Counted from the stretch's first letter, positions 4,671 to 21,106 are shown. The stretch is DNA of 21,106 nucleotides from a bacterium (GCA_043801585.1 JAZDLX010000016.1:1-21106); one strand, 5' to 3'. Numbers and translations: made by a program. Notes: generated from the sequence alone by a model not told the origin.

Positions 4671-5885
4671 ATGCAAAAGATCTTGACGATCGTTTTTCTT
4701 CTGGTGCTGGCAGCAGGAACCTATGCCCAATCCGTTCCCATGGATTGGCAGACTGGCGTGCCTGTCGTAAACAGTTCGCGAGCATCGGCATTGGGCCATA
4801 CCGAAATGTTCGGCGCACTCGACGGTACCGCGATGTTCGCCAATCCCGCGTGGATGGCTGACACTCATGACCTGAATGTGGAAATCGGTGTTTCCTCCAT
4901 CTTCGGAAAGACTCCCTATGATGATCCCATCTTCGGGAACAGTCATGAGCAAAAATACCTGGGCAGCGTGAAACCCGAGTATGCCGTAGCGTCCATGCCG
5001 TTGCGTATTCATGGAATCCCCTTGAGCCTGGCGGTGGGAGCCGGCATCTGGACGATGCATCGACCGGGATGGGACCAGGAAACAACGTGGGAAGAGTACA
5101 GCAGCTCCATCGGCGGTTATGCCACCTATACGGACAAAATTACCTATGATGGGTTGATCCAGTTGGTGGGGCCTGCAGTCGCAGCAGATCTATTCGATAT
5201 GCTCTATGCCGGGCTTTCCATCGGCACTTCCACAGGTGGAACAATCACTGTAAAAGATGAACAGAATTATCCGGGGAATGAATCGTCTGATGAGATTTCC
5301 TATTCCCCCTCGTTCCAGGTAGTGACGCTAAGCGCTGTATTGAGACCGAACAAGAATTTTAAACTTGGCGTCATGATGCGCCCTGCCTATGAGATGACCT
5401 TTGGTGATGTTGTCTACAACTTACCTAGTATTGGTTTCAGCGGCGATGGTCCGAACACAATCTTGTCGATGCCTGAAACCATTGGCGCGAGTTTTTCCCT
5501 GACAAGCGCGGACCAGATGATTGAACTCGTTGGGGAGTACCAGTCCCGCCAGCTAAGCAAGATTCGATACGGGGTTGAGAACTTCGAGCTCAGCGATGTT
5601 CCGCTGGATGACGGGCAGGCGCTACGTCTTGGCTTACAGTTGGGCGCGATCCAGGCTGGTTATTTCATGGAAGATGTTGCCGTAGAAAAAACACAAAATG
5701 AAAGGAAACCAGCCGTCCACAAAGGATTTACGTTCGGATTGGGCTATCGGGGTCATCGGATCAGCCTGCATGCGTTCGGTGAGTACGGAGCGTTGGAATA
5801 CGACAGGATCTTCAACGGAACAACAATCGGTATCAAGGAAACCATCTGGCGAATCGGTGGAGGGATCGGGATCCACCTCTTCTGA
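4671..5885 (+). CDS. Outer-membrane beta-barrel protein, OmpP1/FadL/PorV-like
   Basis: Sec signal peptide (MQKILTIVFLLVLAAGTYA), an SRASALG...DGTAMFANPAWMA motif resembling the FadL/PorV 'RA.GMG...NPAGL' plug, amphipathic beta-strands and a C-terminal Phe. Confidence 0.65.
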   Translation: MQKILTIVFLLVLAAGTYAQSVPMDWQTGVPVVNSSRASALGHTEMFGALDGTAMFANPAWMADTHDLNVEIGVSSIFGKTPYDDPIFGNSHEQKYLGSVKPEYAVASMPLRIHGIPLSLAVGAGIWTMHRPGWDQETTWEEYSSSIGGYATYTDKITYDGLIQLVGPAVAADLFDMLYAGLSIGTSTGGTITVKDEQNYPGNESSDEISYSPSFQVVTLSAVLRPNKNFKLGVMMRPAYEMTFGDVVYNLPSIGFSGDGPNTILSMPETIGASFSLTSADQMIELVGEYQSRQLSKIRYGVENFELSDVPLDDGQALRLGLQLGAIQAGYFMEDVAVEKTQNERKPAVHKGFTFGLGYRGHRISLHAFGEYGALEYDRIFNGTTIGIKETIWRIGGGIGIHLF

Positions 5886-5984: not shown

Positions 5985-6530
5985 TCACTCCACCGGCATC
6001 GCCTCTTCTTCCAGCACCGCAACAGTGTCCGGCACCGCCCAGATTCCCAGGTGATTCAGTTTCGATTCAGCCTGAAAGGATGCGTAATCAACTTCACGGG
6101 GATGCTGATGTTCGGGATTGACCTTCGCCAATCCCTGAGAGAGGATCCATGCACCGAGATCGCTCCCATCCTCCAACCTCATGTAGACATGCAAATCCGG
6201 CGAGGCGGTATCGGGGGCAAAGGCTTTTGAATAATCAAGGATCACAGGCTGACCGATAACACGTTCCGCGATGCGATTGATGGACGAGGTATCCATGCCG
6301 ACAATTCTCACTTCTGTCTCAAGGGTGCTGTCGGGTAGCACCGACACTACATCTGCATAGATTGCTGACGGCGCCAGCCCGATCAGGTGAACGGTACGCC
6401 CTTGCCTCAACACCACTGTATTGACATCATCCACCCTCACCACCCGGTCATGATCGCTGAGGTAACCGACGAACCACAGCAATAGTACCATCAACAGAAG
6501 GATCAGGATGACACCGACATTTCCTCTCAT
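5985..6530 (-). CDS. Membrane-anchored thermonuclease (SNase)-fold protein, catalytic residues degenerate
   Basis: N-terminal TM helix; VVRVDDVNTV, VHLIGL, L..GLA and A......GIW pattern of the SNase family. ATG 6530 with GGAG SD preferred over 6557. Confidence 0.7.
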   Translation of the reverse strand: MRGNVGVILILLLMVLLLWFVGYLSDHDRVVRVDDVNTVVLRQGRTVHLIGLAPSAIYADVVSVLPDSTLETEVRIVGMDTSSINRIAERVIGQPVILDYSKAFAPDTASPDLHVYMRLEDGSDLGAWILSQGLAKVNPEHQHPREVDYASFQAESKLNHLGIWAVPDTVAVLEEEAMPVE

Positions 6531-6562
6531 CGTCCGCTCCCAGGACTTGGATACCAAACCGT

Positions 6563-13108: not shown

Positions 13109-13209
13109 AGAACAGAAAAAAAACGGCATGAAACCCGACTTGCAGGCAAATCGGGCCACCCGCGAATCCCCGGGCCATTTCTTTAGGTCATCCTGACGTC
13201 GAAGTTCAT

Positions 13210-13447
13210 GTAAGCCGGGGTCTCCGAATCCGGCTTATGATCTTGTAGGCCGGGGTCTCCGAACCCGGCTTATAGTCCTTGTAGGCCGGGGTCTCCGAAC
13301 CCGGCTTATGATCTTGTAGGCCGAGGTCTCCGAACCCGGCTCATGATCTTGTAGGCCGGGGTCTCCGAACCCGGCTTATGGTCCTTGTAGGCCGGGGTCT
13401 CCGAACCCGGCTTATGGTCCTTGTAGGCCGAGGTCTCCGAACCCGGC
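13210..13447 (+). repeat. Tandem array of 7 REP sequences (GTAGGCCGGGGTCTCCGAACCCGGC) with 10-11 nt linkers
   Basis: Copies start at 13210, 13245, 13281, 13316, 13351, 13387 and 13423 (period 35-36). Each is a GTAG tetranucleotide (GTAA in copy 1) plus an imperfect hairpin GCCGGG..CCCGGC. The array abuts the RAYT stop. Confidence 0.95.
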
Positions 13448-13457
13448 TTCCTGCCAT

Positions 13458-13961
13458 TTATTCTCCATATCGTACATCACTCTCTACTTCAACGAATGCC
13501 GACCAATCCACCGGATACTCTCCCCGATCGACGTATTCATGGAAACTTGACGTTCCGTAATCACATGGGCTTTTCACAAAACCATGCTTAACAGGATTGT
13601 AATGGATGTATTCCACCGCCCGTATCTGATCATCCGCATCGTGAATCCGATGTTCCCAAAATCGGGGCTGCCAAAGCGTACCCTTTCCCTGCAACATCGC
13701 ATAATTCAAACGACGTTTCATGTTTTCCACCCATCTTGAGAAAGGCAACTCTCCCTGACGAATGACAACGTGGTGGTGATCGGGCATGAAGACGTAGGCA
13801 ATCAATGTGCCTTTCGCTTCATCCGCACAGCGATTCCATTCTGCCTGGGCACGTCGTTGCGTTTCGATCTCTGCGAAATGTGGAGCACGGTTTCGAGTTA
13901 CACAGGTGAGGAAATAAAGATCGTCTGGGTTGCCAACTTGCAGGCGGATATAATTAGACAT
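13458..13961 (-). mobile_element. REP-associated tyrosine transposase (RAYT/TnpA-REP, HUH Y1 family)
   Basis: YFLTCVT.NR, VFMPDHHH (HUH), LWQPRFWEHRI, YIHYNPVKHG (catalytic Tyr) and SSF; 167 aa; flanked on both sides by GTAG REPs. Confidence 0.95.
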
Positions 13962-13974
13962 GGTGCAGATTCAC

Positions 13975-14029
13975 CGTTCGTTGACGAAAACAGAATGCCG
14001 GGTTCGGAGACCCCGGCCTACAACTACTG
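13975..14029 (+). repeat. 55-bp direct repeat copy 1, containing an inverted REP (13997-14021)
   Basis: CGTTCGTTGACGAAAACAGAATGCCGGGTTCGGAGACCCCGGCCTACAACTACTG, identical to 14229-14283. Confidence 0.95.
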
Positions 14030-14085
14030 AGAAGTTCGACCATGCGCAATGGCTGCTCGACGAAATGGGGGTGAAAACGAAGTAG
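14026..14085 (+). pseudogene. Diverged orphan copy of the S46 peptidase 3' end (TEKFDHAQWLLDEMGVKTK*)
   Basis: 50/60 nt identical to 12892-12951 (TEKFAKAQWLLDEMGVKTK*), followed by a homolog of the S46 3' flank and terminator (14095-14156 vs 12960-13022). Confidence 0.9.
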
Positions 14086-14199
14086 TCCCCGCAGTGCCGA
14101 TAAAACGGATTCATAAATGGTCCAGGGATGCGAATCTCCGGGCCATCTCTTTTCAGTCATCCTGAACGAAGTGAAGGATCTTTGAGTCATTCTGTGAAA

Positions 14200-14223
14200 C
14201 CCGACCCTGAAGGGTCGGGCCAC
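14200..14223 (-). repeat. Second REP-like family (GTGG-CCCGACCCT-TC-AGGGTCGGG)
   Basis: Perfect 9-bp stem preceded by GTGG on the minus strand; related copy at 13134-13159. Confidence 0.65.
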
Positions 14224-14228
14224 CTTGT

Positions 14229-14283
14229 CGTTCGTTGACGAAAACAGAATGCCGGGTTCGGAGACCCCGGCCTACAACTACTG
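14229..14283 (+). repeat. 55-bp direct repeat copy 2, containing an inverted REP (14251-14275)
   Basis: Identical to 13975-14029. Confidence 0.95.
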
Positions 14284-14456: not shown

Positions 14457-15764
14457 TTAAATCAGAATCCCCGCGATGGTCGCGGTCTGCCAGCTCGCCA
14501 ATGCGCCGGCGATCATCGCACGGGCGCCGAGACGGGCGAGATCCTTGCGCCGCTCGGGAACGAGGGCGCTGATCCCGCCGATCTGGATCGCGATGGACGA
14601 GATGTTGGCGAAACCGCAGAGGGCGTAGGTCGCAATAATGAAGCTGCGCGGAGTGAGTTGGCTTTTCAGGGCGACCAGATCCACATAGGCGACGAACTCG
14701 TTGATCGAGATCTTCACGCCCATCAAATAGCCGACGTCGATGATGTCCTTGAACGGCACACCCATGAGGAACGCCAGCGGGCTGAACACCCATCCGAAGA
14801 TCACCTTGAGGCTGAGATCATGCAAACCGAAGAGGCCACCCGCCCATCCGAGTATGGCATTCAGCATCGCCACCAGAGCGATGAACGCAATCAGCATCGC
14901 CGCAACGTTCACCGCGAGCTTGAGGCCGTCCGAGGCACCACTCGCCGCAGCGTCGATAACGTTTGAGGAGGTCTTCTCAACGTTGATCTTCAGCGTTCCG
15001 CCGGTTTCCGGCTTGTCCACTTCGGGCACCACGATTTTCGCCATCACCAGCGCCGCCGGAGCGCTCATCACCGAAGCCGCGAGCAGGTGGCCCGGATCGA
15101 TTCCGAAGCGCACATAGGCCGCGAGCACCCCTCCCGCCACCGTCGCGAAACCGCCGGTCATCACCGCCATGATCTCGCTGGGAGTCATGGTTTTGAGGAA
15201 AGGTCGCACCACAAAGGGTGCTTCGGTCTGGCCGACGAAGATGTTCGACGCCGTGCTGAGTGATTCGGCGCCGGAGGTGTGCATCGCGCGCATCATCACC
15301 CAGGCGAATCCCTGCACCAGCCGTTGCATGATTCCGAGGTGGTAGAGCACCGCCATCAGGCTGGCGAAGAAGATGATCGTCGGGAGCACGTGAATCGCGA
15401 AGACCGTGCCCATCTCGACGAAATTGCCGCTGGCGGGGTTGAACACCTGATAGCCTTGAGTGAGGCCACCGGGGACGATGTCATCGGGGATGGAATCGGT
15501 AATGCCGGGGCCCGTCAGGTAAAGGTTCCCGAAGATGAAATGGGCGCCATAGTCGGTGAAGGTGAGAATCTTTGAAATGAAAACCCGTGCGCCCTCGAAG
15601 ATCCACTTCCCGGGCAGGGTTTTCAAAACGAACAGCGCAAAGAAGATCTGCAACCCCACTCCCACACCAACCGTCCGCCATTTGATCGCCTTGCGGTTGT
15701 TGGACATCAGGTACGCGATGCCCATCAGGGCAAAGATGCCAAAGATGCCAATCAGTCTTTCCAC
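14457..15764 (-). CDS. nupC: Concentrative nucleoside transporter (CNT, NupC family)
   Basis: LPTIIFFASL, GAESL...SNIFVGQTEAP, MTGGFATVAG, ASVMSAPA, INEFVAY, YALCGFANISSIAIQIGG; GTG start with AAGGAGG SD. Confidence 0.95.
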   Translation of the reverse strand: MERLIGIFGIFALMGIAYLMSNNRKAIKWRTVGVGVGLQIFFALFVLKTLPGKWIFEGARVFISKILTFTDYGAHFIFGNLYLTGPGITDSIPDDIVPGGLTQGYQVFNPASGNFVEMGTVFAIHVLPTIIFFASLMAVLYHLGIMQRLVQGFAWVMMRAMHTSGAESLSTASNIFVGQTEAPFVVRPFLKTMTPSEIMAVMTGGFATVAGGVLAAYVRFGIDPGHLLAASVMSAPAALVMAKIVVPEVDKPETGGTLKINVEKTSSNVIDAAASGASDGLKLAVNVAAMLIAFIALVAMLNAILGWAGGLFGLHDLSLKVIFGWVFSPLAFLMGVPFKDIIDVGYLMGVKISINEFVAYVDLVALKSQLTPRSFIIATYALCGFANISSIAIQIGGISALVPERRKDLARLGARAMIAGALASWQTATIAGILI

Positions 15765-15824
15765 CCTGCCTCCTTTTCAGTATCGTCAACGCCTACCAGG
15801 TGGTAATCATGTTTTCGGATCTCC

Positions 15825-16049
15825 TCACGCATCGGAAGACGGCGCATCCTCATCCCTGGTTTCTCGAGTACTCAGCATGAGCAGAATCGACATGCCAATG
15901 AAAACACCCGACAGAAAATCCGCGATTTTGAACGCACCGGTGAGGTCCAGACGGTTGACAACAACCAGCAGAATCGTGGCAACGGAGGCGAAGACAGCCG
16001 CCCACGCCCGGCGTTGCACAGCGCTCAGTCCGAGAACCCACCATTTCAT
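15825..16049 (-). CDS. Small two-TM hypothetical membrane protein
   Basis: 74 aa with two hydrophobic segments. The ATG overlaps the tdk stop (ATGA), consistent with translational coupling. Confidence 0.55.
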   Translation of the reverse strand: MKWWVLGLSAVQRRAWAAVFASVATILLVVVNRLDLTGAFKIADFLSGVFIGMSILLMLSTRETRDEDAPSSDA

Positions 16050-16672
16050 GCTTTCTTGTCCTCACCGTTGACCCCGTTGAAGAGCCGTCTCTGCCCCAGT
16101 GGCTCACCGGAGTCGCTCGGCGGTTCCCAACAGCGGCGGCAGCGTGCTTCGTAGATTGCCTCCCCGCCAACGAGGACTCGTTCACTTCCTCCACTGATAC
16201 GTTGGGTGCGATGAGCGGGCGCTCCGCATTTGTGGCAGACGGCTGTCAATTTGGTCACGAACTCGGCTTCACACATCAGTTGTGGAATCGGTTCAAACGG
16301 AACGCCCCGATAATCCGTGTCGAGTCCCGCGATCACCACCCGCTTTCCGATGTTCGCCAGCCTCCGGACTACGGTCGGCAGATCGCCCTCGATGAACTGG
16401 GCTTCATCGATGCCGATCACCTGGGCGTTGCCCACCATCTCCTCGATGTCCCGGGCGTTCTTCACGGGGATCGAGGGAATCCGTTGATCGCTGTGGCTGA
16501 CGACATCCTCAGTGTCGTAACGGTTGTCGATGGCGGGTTTGAACACTACCGCGACCTGCCGTGCAATTCTGGCACGGCGCAAACGACGGATCAGTTCCTC
16601 GGTTTTTCCCGAAAACATGCATCCGCAGATGACCTCGACCCATCCATGGCCGCGTTCGACAACGTTCAACAT
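16046..16672 (-). CDS. tdk: Thymidine kinase (TK1-like)
   Basis: GCMFSGKTEEL P-loop, FKPAIDNRY, IDEAQF, AGLD.DYRG.PF, CxxC...YEARCRRC zinc lasso. Confidence 0.97.
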   Translation of the reverse strand: MLNVVERGHGWVEVICGCMFSGKTEELIRRLRRARIARQVAVVFKPAIDNRYDTEDVVSHSDQRIPSIPVKNARDIEEMVGNAQVIGIDEAQFIEGDLPTVVRRLANIGKRVVIAGLDTDYRGVPFEPIPQLMCEAEFVTKLTAVCHKCGAPAHRTQRISGGSERVLVGGEAIYEARCRRCWEPPSDSGEPLGQRRLFNGVNGEDKKA

Positions 16673-17358
16673 CAGGCTCGCCCCCTTGGGGGTTTGACAT
16701 TCCTTCCAGATACGGAGTGGCGGCTCCGTCTCGGAACTCCTGCTTCGATCAGCGCGAGGACATGGTTTGACAGAATTTCAATCCCCGCGTGATTTTCTCC
16801 ACCGCGCGGAATGATGATATCGGCATAACGTTTCGACGGTTCAACAAAGGTTTCATGCATCGGACGCACCGACTCCTCGTATTGCAGCAGCACGCTTTGC
16901 GCGCTCCGCCCGCGCTCAACCTCGTCACGGCGGATCCGGCGCGCGAGGCGAAGGTCCGCATCTTCATCGACGAACACACGAAAATCCATCAGGTCACGCA
17001 GACATTCGTCCGCAAGGACGAGAATCCCCTCGATCACGATCACCGGGAGGGGCTCACGCCGTATTGTCTCCTTTGTCCTGGAATGATCGACAAAGGAGTA
17101 CACAGGTTCACGAATAGGACGTCCACTCATCAACTGTTTGATATGCCTGTGCAGAAATTCCTGGTCGAAAGCCTCCGGGTGGTCGAAGTTGACACGTGCC
17201 CGCTCGGAGGCGTCCAGGTCGCGCAGGTCGCGATAATAGCTGTCCTGCTTGAGGATCAGCACCTTGTCGGCACCGACCTGTTCGGAGAGACGATTTGAGA
17301 CGAGAGTCTTTCCGCTGCACGTGCCACCAGCGATGCCCACAAGAGCTACGGGCTTCAT
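16672..17358 (-). CDS. udk: Uridine kinase
   Basis: GIAGGTCSGKT, QDSYY, NFDHPEAFD, IEGIL, RRIRRD..ERGR, FVEPSKRYADIIIP. The true start is ATG 17358 (MKPVALV, GGAGG SD, overlapping the cdd stop), not 17607. Confidence 0.96.
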   Translation of the reverse strand: MKPVALVGIAGGTCSGKTLVSNRLSEQVGADKVLILKQDSYYRDLRDLDASERARVNFDHPEAFDQEFLHRHIKQLMSGRPIREPVYSFVDHSRTKETIRREPLPVIVIEGILVLADECLRDLMDFRVFVDEDADLRLARRIRRDEVERGRSAQSVLLQYEESVRPMHETFVEPSKRYADIIIPRGGENHAGIEILSNHVLALIEAGVPRRSRHSVSGRNVKPPRGRA

Positions 17359-17819
17359 TCCTCCTCCTCGAGGTCGGAGTCGCCGAAGGCGTGAGGGATC
17401 AATTCCTGGAGAGCCTGGATACGGGTAGCCTTGGTTCGGGGGTTGTGCAAGATGACCTGCAGATCCGGCGCATAGTCGTGCAACACCTGCCGGCACGCCC
17501 CGCAGGGAGTTGCGATGTTCGGTCCACCGGCGACAATCGCAATTTTCCGGAACGAACGCACCCCCTCGCTGATCGCCTTGAACAGGGCGACCCGTTCCGC
17601 ACAGCAACTGAGGCCATAGCTGGAAGACTCAACGTTGCAGCCTGTCCAGATACGCCCCTGGGTATCCTCAAGTGCAGCCCCCACCCGAAAATGCGAATAG
17701 GTTGCCGCTGCGTTTCGGCGAGCTTCGATGGCAGCTTTTATCAGGGCTTCCTGATCCGGAGTCACCGTGTTCTGTTTGTCGGAAGGCATGGGGTTATGCG
17801 TCCTTGATCTCTCTGACAT
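17355..17819 (-). CDS. cdd: Cytidine deaminase (homotetrameric type)
   Basis: YSHFRVGAAL, GCNVE.SSYGL..CAERVA and PCGACRQ zinc motifs. The start could be 17819 or 17789. Confidence 0.96.
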   Translation of the reverse strand: MSERSRTHNPMPSDKQNTVTPDQEALIKAAIEARRNAAATYSHFRVGAALEDTQGRIWTGCNVESSSYGLSCCAERVALFKAISEGVRSFRKIAIVAGGPNIATPCGACRQVLHDYAPDLQVILHNPRTKATRIQALQELIPHAFGDSDLEEEE

Positions 17820-17909
17820 GCAAGGGATTTTGCGTGTTCACGGAAAAGTAACCGAGAGGGACCACAGGGGCAAGGCGTTTCGTGCCCAACGAGACCGTGG
17901 GGATTTGAC

Positions 17910-18005
17910 GAAAAATTCAGACAGTTTAAATATTCGATCTCGTGCATGCGTTCTTCGGGCGAATCATATTTATCAAAACGAATATTTAAACTGTCTGAAT
18001 TTTTC
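17910..18005. repeat. Perfect 27-bp inverted repeats around a 42-bp spacer in the divergent cdd/gatE intergenic region
   Basis: GAAAAATTCAGACAGTTTAAATATTCG (17910-17936) and CGAATATTTAAACTGTCTGAATTTTTC (17979-18005). Confidence 0.93.
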
Positions 18006-18022
18006 ACGCCTCCTGGCGTTGG

Positions 18023-18051
18023 TTGCGCCGGATGCGCCTCAAACGTAGTTT
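18023..18051 (+). promoter_or_regulatory. Possible sigma70 promoter for gatE
   Basis: TTGCGC, 17 nt, TAGTTT, 40 nt upstream of ATG 18092. Confidence 0.35.
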
Positions 18052-18091
18052 ACCCGCGTCCTAAACGATCGGTCAACACGGCGGAAGCGGC

Positions 18092-20050
18092 ATGACAACA
18101 CTCACCCCCGCCCTTTCAGCACGGAAACGCGCCATGCAGCAGAATGTCGGCAACGCCGAACTGTGGAAGAAACTGAACTTCCGTTGTGGATTGGAGATCC
18201 ACCACCAGATTCTGACCGAAAAGAAGCTCTTCTGCCACTGCCCCGCCGGAGTCTATACCGACGAGTGGCACGCGGAGGCGCTGCGTCACATGCGTCCTAC
18301 CCTGTCCGAACTCGGCGAATATGATGGCACGGCGTTGATGGAGTTCAAGACGAAAAAGGAGATCATCTACCGGCTGAACAGGAACACGGTCTGCACCTAT
18401 GAGATGGACGACAACCCGCCGTTTCTGATCAACGACCAGGCGGTGGACATCGCACTGACCATCGCCCTGGCTCTCAAGTGCAAGATCGTCGGCGAGTTAC
18501 ACATCATCCGCAAACAATATCTGGACGGCAGCATCCCCGCAGGATTCCAGCGCACCGCCATCGTAGGCGTGGACGGGCAGATCGAACTGAGTTCAGGCAA
18601 GGTTGTATCGATCATCCAGCTCGGACTGGAGGAAGATGCCTGCCGGGAAATCTCCGACCGCGGTCATCTGATCATCTTCAGCACCGACCGGCTGAGCATG
18701 CCGATCATCGAGGTAGTGACCGGCAACAACCTCGCAACCCCCGAGGAAGCCGCCGAGGCGGGAATGCGTATCGGCCGGTTGCTGCGGGCGACCCAGCTCG
18801 TGCGCAGGGGCATGGGGTCGGGACGGCAGGATGTGAATGTTTCGATTGAAAGCTCCACCCGTGTCGAGATCAAGGGTGTTCCCCGCATCCCCCGCATTCC
18901 CGAACTGACCGCTCTCGAAGCCATTCGCCAGCAGCGGCTGATCGCGCTCCGGGACCGTCTCCAGGAAAGGGGATTCAAGCCGGGCGAGGCTCCCGGCGAG
19001 GAGGTTCCGTTCAAAGCGCGTCCGGGAGACTTGAACCGTCCGGAACTGTCCGCGGCGTTGCGCGCCGGAGACAACGTTCGTGTGGTCAAGATCCCCAGAT
19101 CCCGCAAAATTCTGAACTGGGAACTCTCCGGTGGCCGGACCTTTACGGACGAACTGGCGGGCCGTGTGCAGGTGATCGCCTGCCTCGACCAGATGCCGAA
19201 CCTCTTTCACACCGATGGTCCCGCAGGTGGGCTTGACCCGGAGGATCGCGAACGGTTCGCCAAAGCCGCCAATCTTGGCCCGGAAGATGTAGCCGTGATC
19301 GTGTATGGTAAAGACGAGGACACCCGGACCGCCGCTCAGGAAATCCTGATCCGTTTCGCGGAAGCAACCGCCGGTGTTCCTGGAGAAACCCGCCAGGCGC
19401 TGCGCAACAACGCCACAGGCTTCGAGCGCATTCTCCCGGGTCCAGACAGGATGTACCCCGACACGGACAGCCCGCCTTACGAAATCGCCGACGAACGAGT
19501 CGAAGAAGCTCGCAAACGAGTGCCGGAGGTCCCCTGGGTGCGTGAGGAACGTTACCGAAAACTCGGTCTTCCCGAAGATGTGCTCTGGCGTCTCGCAATC
19601 AGCCCCTACGCCGCGCTGTTCGACCGCCTCGTGAAAAAGAAGGCGGTTCCCCCGATGCTGGCGGGTGAAGTGCTGACCCGTTTCCTCGTCTCCGCACGGC
19701 GCAAAGGTGCGGATGTCACCGTGCTGAATGAAGAACATTGGGAAACACTGTTGCGTGCGTTGGGTTCCGGTACGATTTTCCGTGAGGGCATCTACGCGAC
19801 ACTCTCGCTGTGGTGCAAAACGCCGGAAGCGAGTCTGCACGAGGTGATCGAGCGGTTAGGCATGGGCAAGGTGGTCAGCGACAACGATCTTGAGAAGACA
19901 GTTAAAAAAGCCGTTGCGGTTGCTCAGCAAAGCGTCATGAGTACGGACGGCGTATTGGTCGATGTGGCAATGGGCGAAGCGATGTCCGAACTTGCGGGAC
20001 GAATTCCCGGTCGAAAAGTACGCGAATCGATCCTGAAAGTTCTGGCGTAA
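18092..20050 (+). CDS. gatE: Glu-tRNA(Gln) amidotransferase subunit E (archaeal-type GatE)
   Basis: GLEIHHQ..KLFC.CP, RPTLSELGEYD, C..EMDD.PP, RK..LDGS...GFQRT, LEEDA, RG.G..RQDVNVSI, RVEIKGV, GVPGETR, LPG..RMYP.TD. At 652 aa it has the central insertion that distinguishes GatE from the roughly 480-aa GatB. Alternative start 18134. Confidence 0.9.
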   Translation: MTTLTPALSARKRAMQQNVGNAELWKKLNFRCGLEIHHQILTEKKLFCHCPAGVYTDEWHAEALRHMRPTLSELGEYDGTALMEFKTKKEIIYRLNRNTVCTYEMDDNPPFLINDQAVDIALTIALALKCKIVGELHIIRKQYLDGSIPAGFQRTAIVGVDGQIELSSGKVVSIIQLGLEEDACREISDRGHLIIFSTDRLSMPIIEVVTGNNLATPEEAAEAGMRIGRLLRATQLVRRGMGSGRQDVNVSIESSTRVEIKGVPRIPRIPELTALEAIRQQRLIALRDRLQERGFKPGEAPGEEVPFKARPGDLNRPELSAALRAGDNVRVVKIPRSRKILNWELSGGRTFTDELAGRVQVIACLDQMPNLFHTDGPAGGLDPEDRERFAKAANLGPEDVAVIVYGKDEDTRTAAQEILIRFAEATAGVPGETRQALRNNATGFERILPGPDRMYPDTDSPPYEIADERVEEARKRVPEVPWVREERYRKLGLPEDVLWRLAISPYAALFDRLVKKKAVPPMLAGEVLTRFLVSARRKGADVTVLNEEHWETLLRALGSGTIFREGIYATLSLWCKTPEASLHEVIERLGMGKVVSDNDLEKTVKKAVAVAQQSVMSTDGVLVDVAMGEAMSELAGRIPGRKVRESILKVLA

Positions 20051-20078
20051 AGCACAGCCGGAAATCGTCGGAGCCTGG

Positions 20079-21089
20079 ATGAACATTGAAAAAAGACTTC
20101 TCTTCAGCCTCTTTGCCCTGCTGATGATCTTTGTCATCGGAACCATCGGCTATTTCCTCCTCGAAACCAACTGGTCCGTTCTCGACTCCCTGTACATGAC
20201 AATGATCACCATCAGCACAGTGGGATTCCACGAAGTGCACATGTTGAATCCGAATGGACGTTTCCTGACGATGTTCCTGATCATCTCCGGGTTGACAGTC
20301 GGAGCCTATGGTATTACCAACCTCACCTCGTACATCGTCAGCGGACAGATTGTGCAAACCCTGAGGGGAAGGCGCATGGAAAAACGCATTCAGTCTCTTC
20401 GCAAACACATCATCGTCGCAGGATTTGGAAAACTGGGCCGTGAGATTGCGGAAGAGTTATCCGAGGCGGAAGCGGATTTCGTTGTCGTCGAACAGGACGA
20501 AGAACACTGTGAAGCCGCCGAGGAAAAAGAATTTATGGTCATCCGCGGGGATGCCAGCGAGGAGGAAACCCTCGAACGTGCCGGTATTAAAAACGCCTAC
20601 GCGCTTGTCGCCGCTCTGACCGGCGACGCTGGAAACGTGATGGTGACAATTACAGCGCGTGAAATGAACCCGGGCCTTTATATCGTCGCGCGCGGGATCG
20701 ACGATAACAGCCTGAAGAAACTGAAACGAGCGGGCGCCGACCGGGTGGAGATGCCGTTCAAGATCTCAGGAAAACGGTTGACGACACTCGTACTGAAACC
20801 GGGCTTTGTTGATTTCATCGACCTTTTCAGCCGCACATTCGCCCGTGACCTGCAGATGGAACAATCGATCGTGCCGCCGGGAAATCCCCTCGTCGGCAAA
20901 ACCCTCGCCGGTCTGGACCTTCGGAAGAAAACGGGTGGCTTGTTGGTGCTCGCCGTCGAACGGGAGGACGGGCAGATCATTCTCCATCCGACTGGGGACA
21001 TGGAATTGCGCGAAAACGACCGCATCCTGCTGATGGGCAACGAGGAACAGATCGAGCGCTATCGAAAGGAATACAGTCTCACGACATGA
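20079..21089 (+). CDS. Potassium channel protein with TrkA-N/TrkA-C (RCK) domains
   Basis: Two TM helices with TISTVGF pore signature, HIIVAGFGKLG Rossmann motif, GDAS..ETL..AGI, AGADRV, C-terminal RCK-C; GGAG SD. Confidence 0.93.
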   Translation: MNIEKRLLFSLFALLMIFVIGTIGYFLLETNWSVLDSLYMTMITISTVGFHEVHMLNPNGRFLTMFLIISGLTVGAYGITNLTSYIVSGQIVQTLRGRRMEKRIQSLRKHIIVAGFGKLGREIAEELSEAEADFVVVEQDEEHCEAAEEKEFMVIRGDASEEETLERAGIKNAYALVAALTGDAGNVMVTITAREMNPGLYIVARGIDDNSLKKLKRAGADRVEMPFKISGKRLTTLVLKPGFVDFIDLFSRTFARDLQMEQSIVPPGNPLVGKTLAGLDLRKKTGGLLVLAVEREDGQIILHPTGDMELRENDRILLMGNEEQIERYRKEYSLTT

Positions 21090-21106
21090 TGGGCGGCGAT
21101 TGGATG

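Follow-up and report, generated by a model that had tools for sequence, protein, structure and literature searches.

A bacterial gatE gene from a many-phylum GatDE clade, kept mostly beside other routes to Gln-tRNA

What does an archaeal-type amidotransferase gene do in a bacterial chromosome? The question is raised by a stretch of 21,106 nucleotides (GCA_043801585.1 JAZDLX010000016.1:1-21106; hereafter the window, which is the entire contig C42 of its genome) that carries, at 18092-20050 on the plus strand, an open reading frame (ORF) of 652 amino acids (aa) resembling GatE. GatE is a subunit of GatDE, the amidotransferase that acts on Glu-tRNA(Gln). Two reviews of 2022 (PMC8762117, PMC9499178; like all papers cited here by number, used in excerpt) state that GatDE is restricted to archaea, and this restriction underlies their account of the last universal common ancestor and of the archaeal lack of glutaminyl-tRNA synthetase (GlnRS). 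The original prediction, made from the window alone, had seen a conflict with the archaea-only view, which these excerpts bear out, and had proposed that the lineage makes Gln-tRNA by an archaeal route. Our study places this gatE in a bacterial GatDE clade that extends over many phyla, so that it is not a one-off import. The genome (G000) measures 3.28 Mb and is 92.4% complete and 1.7% contaminated; a second genome of the same genus (G001) supplied orthologues for comparison.

The gatE gene and its protein

The ORF, read from the window sequence as first described, is with near certainty a GatE. In profile searches it passed the cut-offs of both GatE models, with 505 bits against 456 for PRK04028 and 440.5 bits against 319.55 for TIGR00134 (gatE_arch), and it missed every GatB cut-off, the top GatB model giving 159 bits against 338. 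It matches P. abyssi 1zq1_C (E 1e-95) and M. thermautotrophicus 2d6f_C (E 2e-92) over its full length. Translation probably starts at Met15 (18134), which would give 638 aa, since the equivalent methionine opens three close homologues, each 637 aa long. The Mg2+ ligands described for archaeal GatE (His15, Glu157 and Glu184 of M. thermautotrophicus; PMC2330236) correspond, in the alignment to 2d6f_C, to His37, Glu180 and Glu207; column tallies over 110 bacterial GatE found the histidine in 108/110 (the other two are gaps) and each glutamate in 110/110. Measured against the orthologue from the same genus, the ratio of nonsynonymous to synonymous substitution rates (dN/dS) comes to about 0.10, a rough value at a dS of about 1.0, and on this sequence comparison gatE is under purifying selection. 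The features of the gene are as follows.

18092-20050, plus strand: gatE ORF, from profile models, the 1zq1/2d6f alignment and the predicted structure; probable start at 18134
18173-18967, plus strand: catalytic cradle, N-terminal part (residues 28-292; H37, E180, E207; motifs CTYEMDD, YLDGSIPxGFQR, EEDACRE), from the 2d6f_C alignment and 110-row tallies
18200-18202, plus strand: His37, aligned with M. thermautotrophicus His15, Mg2+ ligand (PMC2330236)
18629-18631, plus strand: Glu180, aligned with M. thermautotrophicus Glu157, Mg2+ ligand (PMC2330236)
18710-18712, plus strand: Glu207, aligned with M. thermautotrophicus Glu184, Mg2+ ligand (PMC2330236)
18881-18883, plus strand: Pro264, where archaeal-type GatE has Gln (M. 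thermautotrophicus Gln240), from the column tally by group
18980-19375, plus strand: AspRS-like insertion domain, specific to GatE (residues 297-428), from the structure match to AspRS 1c0a
19376-19486, plus strand: cradle, C-terminal part (GVPxETR ... LPGPDRMYPDTD), from the 2d6f_C alignment and 110-row tallies
19487-19867, plus strand: helical domain (residues 466-592), from domain search, predicted structure and its comparison
19868-20044, plus strand: YqeY-like tail, reader of the tRNA D-loop, lacking GxxAxGx and weakly conserved in bacteria, from the match to YqeY 8xjg (PMC2811023)

The predicted structure (predicted local distance difference test score 93.9) has 2d6f_D as its top match (Z 38.3, root-mean-square deviation (rmsd) 4.1, 511 residues aligned), and 2d6f and 1zq1 are ranked first. 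In comparisons of the model, residues 297-428 resemble the insertion domain of aspartyl-tRNA synthetase (AspRS) 1c0a (Z 12.6, rmsd 3.1, 120 aligned), which identifies the long central insertion noticed earlier, and the tail, residues 593-651, resembles YqeY 8xjg (Z 8.3, rmsd 2.0, 55 aligned). The GatE fold is thus intact in the model, with all domains, including the AspRS-like insert and the tail. With the GatB of bacterial GatCAB the protein shares the architecture of cradle, helical domain and YqeY-like tail (Z about 30), the same chemistry and the residues Y143 and P149; unlike it, GatB has no 130-residue insert and is partnered by the amidase GatA.

The surroundings of the gene are bacterial, as had been claimed, and the contig is not chimeric. 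Positions 14461-21090 of the window are collinear with a related locus (L040) at 77-84% DNA identity, and gatE has an ordinary composition: its G+C content at third codon positions is 0.71 (74th percentile among 621 long ORFs), and in codon distance it ranks at the 54th percentile (n = 601). As had been proposed, the gene is old and has ameliorated. Profile scores, structure, composition and this collinearity rule out both that the protein is a GatB carrying an insertion and that the contig is chimeric.

Compared with archaeal GatDE, for which structures exist from M. thermautotrophicus (2D6F, with tRNA-Gln) and P. abyssi (1ZQ1), the bacterial protein is homologous over its full length, with 34-35% identity over the structural alignment. 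It keeps all domains with the AspRS-like insert, the three Mg2+ ligands and the basic loop LVRRGMG at the first base pair, and the GatD partner of its relatives has the N-terminal domain and the catalytic motifs. The bacterial GatE differs from it in the replacement of Gln240, in the absence of GxxAxGx and in its motifs CTYE, YLDGSIP, EEDACRE, RVIAC and YPDTD; its host is a bacterium with GlnRS, asparaginyl-tRNA synthetase (AsnRS) and an Arg-type bacterial glutamyl-tRNA synthetase (GluRS) in place of the archaeal non-discriminating (ND) GluRS, and the host tRNA-Gln is mostly of the U1-A72/G73 type.

What changed within the protein was compared over 73 bacterial rows, 69 archaeal-type rows and 8 rows near Asgard archaea, sets that differ in their sampling. 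Mean pairwise identity in the cradle is higher in the bacterial than in the archaeal-type rows (0.625 against 0.513 in one part, 0.684 against 0.601 in the other); it is 0.32 and 0.33 in the insert, 0.21 and 0.25 in the helical domain, and 0.19 and 0.295 in the tail. The equivalent of Gln240, a residue that we take to be a tRNA contact in M. thermautotrophicus GatE, is retained in 2/73 bacterial, 67/69 other archaeal-type and 8/8 Asgard-near rows. The tail motif GxxAxGx, implicated in the exclusion of Asp-tRNA(Asn) (PMC2811023), is absent from this GatE and occurs in 1/73 bacterial, 19/69 archaeal-type (by the pattern used) and 5/8 Asgard-near rows. Four near-invariant residues, C184, H192, C364 and R358, are private to the bacterial clade. 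To judge by these alignments, bacterial GatE holds its chemistry tightly, with a core more conserved than the archaeal one, and has loosened the parts that would read tRNA.

Spread, partner and relationships of bacterial GatE

GatE exceeds the cut-off in 39 of the 61 genomes of the phylum, and three more have partial or frameshifted copies. One gatE (G009:C33:547245-549124, locus L161) carries several frameshifts, due to decay or sequencing error; its genome also encodes GatD, GlnRS and GatB. A genome scan confirmed at least 564 gatE loci; the best 80 of them all carry bacterial titles, among them Bacteroidales, Ignavibacteria, Aminicenantes, KSB1, Holophagae, Gemmatimonadota, Cloacimonadales, Caldisericia, Zixibacteria and Myxococcota. 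Homologues named Ca. Electryonea and Ca. Hatepunaea suggest that the host phylum is Electryoneota. How often such genes are already annotated in uncultured bacteria had been raised as a question; many bacterial homologues are named GatE by NCBI/JGI. A literature search over titles and opening abstracts, mostly excluding subscription papers and supplementary tables, found no paper describing bacterial GatDE. This is a real bacterial variant of GatDE, annotated in databases and apparently undiscussed in the literature.

It had also been remarked that no gatD adjoins the gene. The neighbours are indeed cdd and a K+ channel gene, neither of which is gatD; the apparent absence, however, almost surely reflects an unlinked gene together with a gap in the assembly. 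GatD exceeds the cut-off in 40/61 phylum genomes and is matched in 15/15 genomes of the same family (one match is partial), where gatD is unlinked to gatE; elsewhere gatD lies inside the gatE locus in 65 of 78 loci (L042-L119), and several of the other 13 stop just past gatE. In most relatives GatD is the sole asparaginase-family match, and it keeps GTGGTIAS, HGTDT and KMH(S/T)S in 30/30 sequences examined. The gene order in G001 is a priA-like gene (so labelled by us from resemblance), der, tRNA-Gly(CCC) and gatD. Contig C141 of our genome breaks off inside the first gene of this series, and neither der (no match over cut-off), a normally essential gene, nor tRNA-Gly(CCC) was found in G000. 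Since the contig ends at the expected place and these two genes are missing too, gatD is almost surely absent through an assembly gap, which is far likelier than its loss. Across the family gatD stands close to tRNA-Gly(CCC) (L135, L136, L142, L154-L160). Public reads were uninformative on gatD: one weak DNA dataset (share 0.06) and no RNA dataset were found, and only short pieces from other organisms fell on the G001 gatD region. The sole amidase of the genome, with a long N-terminal leader, scores 220 bits against the GatA cut-off of 481; the amidase on contig C179, considered as a substitute ammonia donor, was rejected as it is of the PRK08137 type and not GatA.

Three trees were built: a FastTree of 158 rows, a quick IQ-TREE of 43 rows without GatB and another of 29 rows with four GatB. 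The "other archaeal" rows were drawn from the top 150 among 618 hits (E <= 1e-30), so that the sampling leans to the query; rows had to measure 570-720 aa and to show the N-terminal motif. GatE is parted from GatB, with bacterial GatB as sole outgroup, at a support of 100 in the Shimodaira-Hasegawa-like approximate likelihood ratio test, in agreement with the earlier identification of the protein. The bacterial rows form a single clade (support 99-100), whose sister is P0152 (support 98 and 91), a row with a protein labelled Heimdallarchaeota in its 90% cluster; near the clade lie P0175 (Thorarchaeota), P0210 (Odinarchaeota) and five further rows. GatE with these Asgard database labels occupies the nearest branches in all three trees and has Y103, Y143, P149, F111 and D457 in common with bacterial GatE, from which it differs by keeping Gln240 and, in most rows, the tail motif, and by scoring far higher on archaeal models (746 bits for P0152 against 505). 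Sequence comparison thus supports an Asgard affinity of the bacterial clade. Four of the "other archaeal" rows carry archaeal names, and the branch that leads to the GatB root is long and shifts position between trees. The inter-domain transfer that had been suggested fits the best trees; an attempt to prove that it ran from archaea to bacteria failed, as archaeal monophyly withstood an approximately unbiased test (p = 0.244).

Routes to Gln-tRNA and the role of GatDE

Searching the genome for the enzymes that bear on an archaeal route recovered a glnS fragment and one gltX of Arg type; gatD, gatA and gatB were not found, the latter two in profile searches. The GlnRS is an N-terminus with 92 codons of its frame assembled, cut by the end of contig C7, and is 88% identical to that of G001; GlnRS is matched in 14/15 same-family genomes. 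Writing E, D, Q and B for GatE, GatD, GlnRS and GatB, the 61 phylum genomes show EDQ- in 23, ED-B in 11, EDQB in 5, ---B in 11, --Q- in 5 and -DQ- in 2, and E-Q-, E--B, --QB and ED-- once each (partial genes are counted as present, and the GlnRS fragment of G000 was entered by hand). In 50 further gatE genomes, taken from 50 of 78 loci and picked for spread, GlnRS was matched in 48 and GatB in 17. Over both sets, which consist mostly of incomplete assemblies and include kin that are not independent, 90 of 92 gatE genomes have one or both enzymes, and two have neither: G056 (87% complete) and G108 (a 2.1-Mb assembly).

The other question is whether these bacteria make Glu-tRNA(Gln) at all. A single Arg, Arg358 of T. 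thermophilus GluRS, is described as making bacterial GluRS discriminating (PMC2978374). The genome has one bacterial-type GluRS with Arg at the equivalent position, a sequence marker that points to a discriminating enzyme. Among 24 genomes with GatE and GlnRS and without GatB, 19 have one GluRS, with Arg in 17/17 examined; five have two, and the top copy, seen in four, always has Arg. As a control, at least one non-Arg copy was found in 12/12 genomes examined out of the 23 that have GatB and no GlnRS. The marker is not strict, as two GlnRS genomes also hold a non-Arg copy, and the alignment of divergent second copies is less sure at this site. On the asparagine side, AsnRS exceeds the cut-off in 57/61 genomes, which leaves unsupported an archaea-like division of labour with GatCAB for Asn and GatDE for Gln. 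Our genome has an asparagine synthetase A at C32:1862-2830, AsnRS-like and of the PRK06462 type (394 bits; cut-off 309), and elsewhere an ordinary AsnRS and two genes of the AsnB family. Its AspRS carries RDLGG, as Asp-only enzymes do, against the RDHGG of the ND-AspRS of P. aeruginosa; we take this site to mark the Asp-only and the non-discriminating type.

The tRNAs complete the picture. The tRNA-Gln(UUG) of the genome (C213:670-743) has A1-U72, G73, one extra D-loop base and G37-G38, and its tRNA-Asn has U1-A72. Of 46 matching genomes the 30 best were compared, and A1-U72 in this isoacceptor is seen only in G000 and G001, the other 28 having U1-A72; tRNA-Gln(CUG) has U1-A72 in 9/9 found in 21 genomes. 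The first-base-pair check thus gave the archaeal type for one isoacceptor and the bacterial type for the other. In archaea A1-U72 is a GatDE determinant and extra D-loop bases are antideterminants (PMC2330236); U1-A72 is an identity element of bacterial GlnRS (PMC9976931). With only 2/30 genomes having it, A1-U72 was rejected as a general reason for GatDE, and drift once GatCAB had been lost accounts for it and for the extra base no less well than adaptation to GatDE does. A tRNA-Gln or tRNA-Gln-like gene stands immediately 5' of gatE in 2/110 loci, both Holophagae: a tRNA-Gln(CUG) with U1-A72 and A73 at L074:5839-5913, and, at L079:4188-4263, a gene with the same body, U1-A72 and A73, and an abnormal loop read as anticodon CUA. 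A relaxed ARAGORN run for tRNA-like genes beside gatE returned noise only.

Our leading reading, to which we give a probability of roughly 45%, is that bacterial GatDE would be an accessory enzyme on Glu-tRNA(Gln), acting in rescue or under certain conditions. Its role would be accessory rather than principal because only two of the 92 gatE genomes lack both GlnRS and GatB. Purifying selection, the tightly conserved cradle, the retained AspRS-like insert and the tRNA-Gln or tRNA-Gln-like gene 5' of gatE in L074 and L079 also speak for this reading. The housekeeping route would be GlnRS here and GatCAB in other lineages, with GatDE beside it. GatD, whose asparaginase motifs are intact in relatives, would free ammonia from Asn or Gln; the ammonia would pass to GatE by a tunnel like that of archaea, and GatE with ATP would phosphorylate and then amidate the glutamate on the tRNA 3' end. 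The enzyme would thereby rescue Glu-tRNA(Gln) leaked by GluRS, or supply Gln-tRNA conditionally, for instance when Gln is low and Asn is at hand, and its relaxed tRNA-reading parts could allow it to take bacterial U1-A72 tRNA. Several observations weigh against this reading. Where the single GluRS is of Arg type (G000 and the 17/17 genomes above), nothing is seen that would steadily supply Glu-tRNA(Gln), no GatD or asparaginase-family match was found in G000, and 5/61 genomes have GlnRS without any amidotransferase. A rescue role accounts only weakly for such strong conservation, because many GlnRS bacteria do without any amidotransferase. The extra D-loop base occurs in 8/18 genomes lacking GatB, G000 included, and in 0/12 with GatB (the eight are all of one family and probably represent one event); because such bases are antideterminants of archaeal GatDE, tRNA-Gln(UUG) may have left the substrates of the amidotransferase.

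The discriminating type of the GluRS and the near absence of genomes in which GatDE replaces GlnRS or GatCAB (2/92) also suit a repurposed enzyme, which we regard as possible and on the whole unlikely. The phosphorylate-then-amidate chemistry would then serve something else than housekeeping Glu-tRNA(Gln), for example a dedicated carrier that resembles tRNA and is non-coding, a different acyl-tRNA, or the release of nitrogen from Asn or Gln under the gating of a tRNA. A core conserved beyond the archaeal level while the tRNA-reading parts drift, the four clade-private residues, GatD as sole asparaginase-family match in most relatives and the odd gene directly 5' of gatE in L079 (abnormal CUA loop, A73) agree with it. 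Yet gatD is the only conserved partner in 110 loci, the odd tRNA occurs in one of them, and all domains including the tail are retained; we know of no alternative substrate of bacterial GatDE. That the enzyme acts on Asp-tRNA(Asn), making or rescuing Asn-tRNA, is doubtful: the scarcity of GxxAxGx (1/73) and the U1-A72 of tRNA-Asn would allow it, but that motif is found in only 19/69 archaeal-type rows as well, AsnRS is nearly universal, the genome has its asparagine synthetase A and two AsnB-family genes, and its AspRS has RDLGG. The insert, reported to block partnering of archaeal GatE with ND-AspRS (PMC2943598), is moreover kept. Slightly more doubtful still is a split between isoacceptors in this genus, with GluRS and GatDE serving the A1-U72 tRNA-Gln(UUG) and GlnRS the U1-A72 tRNA-Gln(CUG). 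The two-sided change from U1-A72 to A1-U72 in both genomes, the constancy of the CUG isoacceptor and the published determinants (PMC2330236, PMC9976931) speak for it; however, the same tRNA has the extra D-loop base and G73, the GluRS has Arg, drift covers both changes, and G000 and G001 count as one event. Nor could it explain the clade, as 28/30 tRNA-Gln(UUG), mostly in GatDE genomes, have U1-A72.

The archaeal route first proposed, with GatDE as the main source of Gln-tRNA(Gln), did not hold up and is now very unlikely. G000 lacks gatB and gatA, its GlnRS frame is assembled for 92 codons only, the Arg marker is imperfect, and G056 and G108 have gatE with neither alternative; these two, however, are a genome 87% complete and a 2.1-Mb assembly, GlnRS is present in 14/15 same-family genomes and in 48/50 reached through other loci, and GatB is kept in 12/13 phylum gatE genomes without GlnRS, though AsnRS would make it dispensable there. 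Least probable of all is an orphan or decaying gatE whose gatD was truly lost. The missing GatD match and the frameshifted copy in G009 could be read in this way, but the ORF is intact, its dN/dS is 0.10, and the end of C141 coincides with the lack of der, tRNA-Gly(CCC) and gatD together. A broader history can be sketched, in which gatDE passed from an Asgard (Heimdall-like) archaeon into an early bacterium and the pair spread across phyla, was kept beside GlnRS and a discriminating GluRS for a non-housekeeping job, tightened its active site, loosened its tRNA reading and amidates some other substrate; as a whole we consider this sequence of events unlikely, somewhat below repurposing as such.

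Neighbourhood of the gene and meaning of the clade

Three features adjoin gatE in the window.

17355-17819, minus strand: cdd (cytidine deaminase), divergent neighbour, in a nucleoside-salvage run cdd-udk-tdk-nupC, from profile search
17910-18005, no strand: dispersed 96-bp repeat whose inverted ends, 27 nt each, are perfect; it lies between cdd and gatE and is not part of the system, from repeat comparison
20079-21089, plus strand: K+ channel (Ion_trans_2 with TrkA-N/C), 28 bp 3' of gatE, a lineage-level neighbour outside the enzyme, from domain search

Comparison of 110 gatE loci revealed no conserved partner beside gatE except gatD; the K+ channel gene is present in 15. In seven (L013, L015, L017, L023, L026, L033, L117) a gene near gatE resembles that of a protein-L-isoaspartate methyltransferase. 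Related copies of the 96-bp repeat, which looks like a miniature inverted-repeat transposable element or a repetitive extragenic palindromic (REP) element, occur on seven other contigs, and it is not at the same place in L040. Farther upstream, positions 13196-14283 hold a REP-associated tyrosine transposase (13458-13961, minus strand) flanked by tandem palindromic REP repeats of ~35 bp, and at 14035-14085 part of the 3' end of the S46 peptidase gene is duplicated. The ORFs 4671-5885 (404 aa) and 5985-6557 (190 aa) have no Pfam/NCBIfam match; the first resembles an exported beta-barrel. A tRNA-Sec gene lies elsewhere in the genome, at C78:90415-90507.

A large, conserved bacterial clade contradicts the statement that GatDE is found only in archaea, and its affinity to Asgard archaea is relevant to how genes moved early on between the domains. 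Where this clade persists, no enzyme is known to make the GatDE substrate; it may carry out a novel step of fidelity or rescue in translation, or amidate a novel substrate. The A1-U72 tRNA-Gln(UUG) specific to this genus offers a natural test case for bacterial GatE's reading of the first base pair. Rather than the pathway suggested earlier, the better question is what bacterial GatDE amidates.

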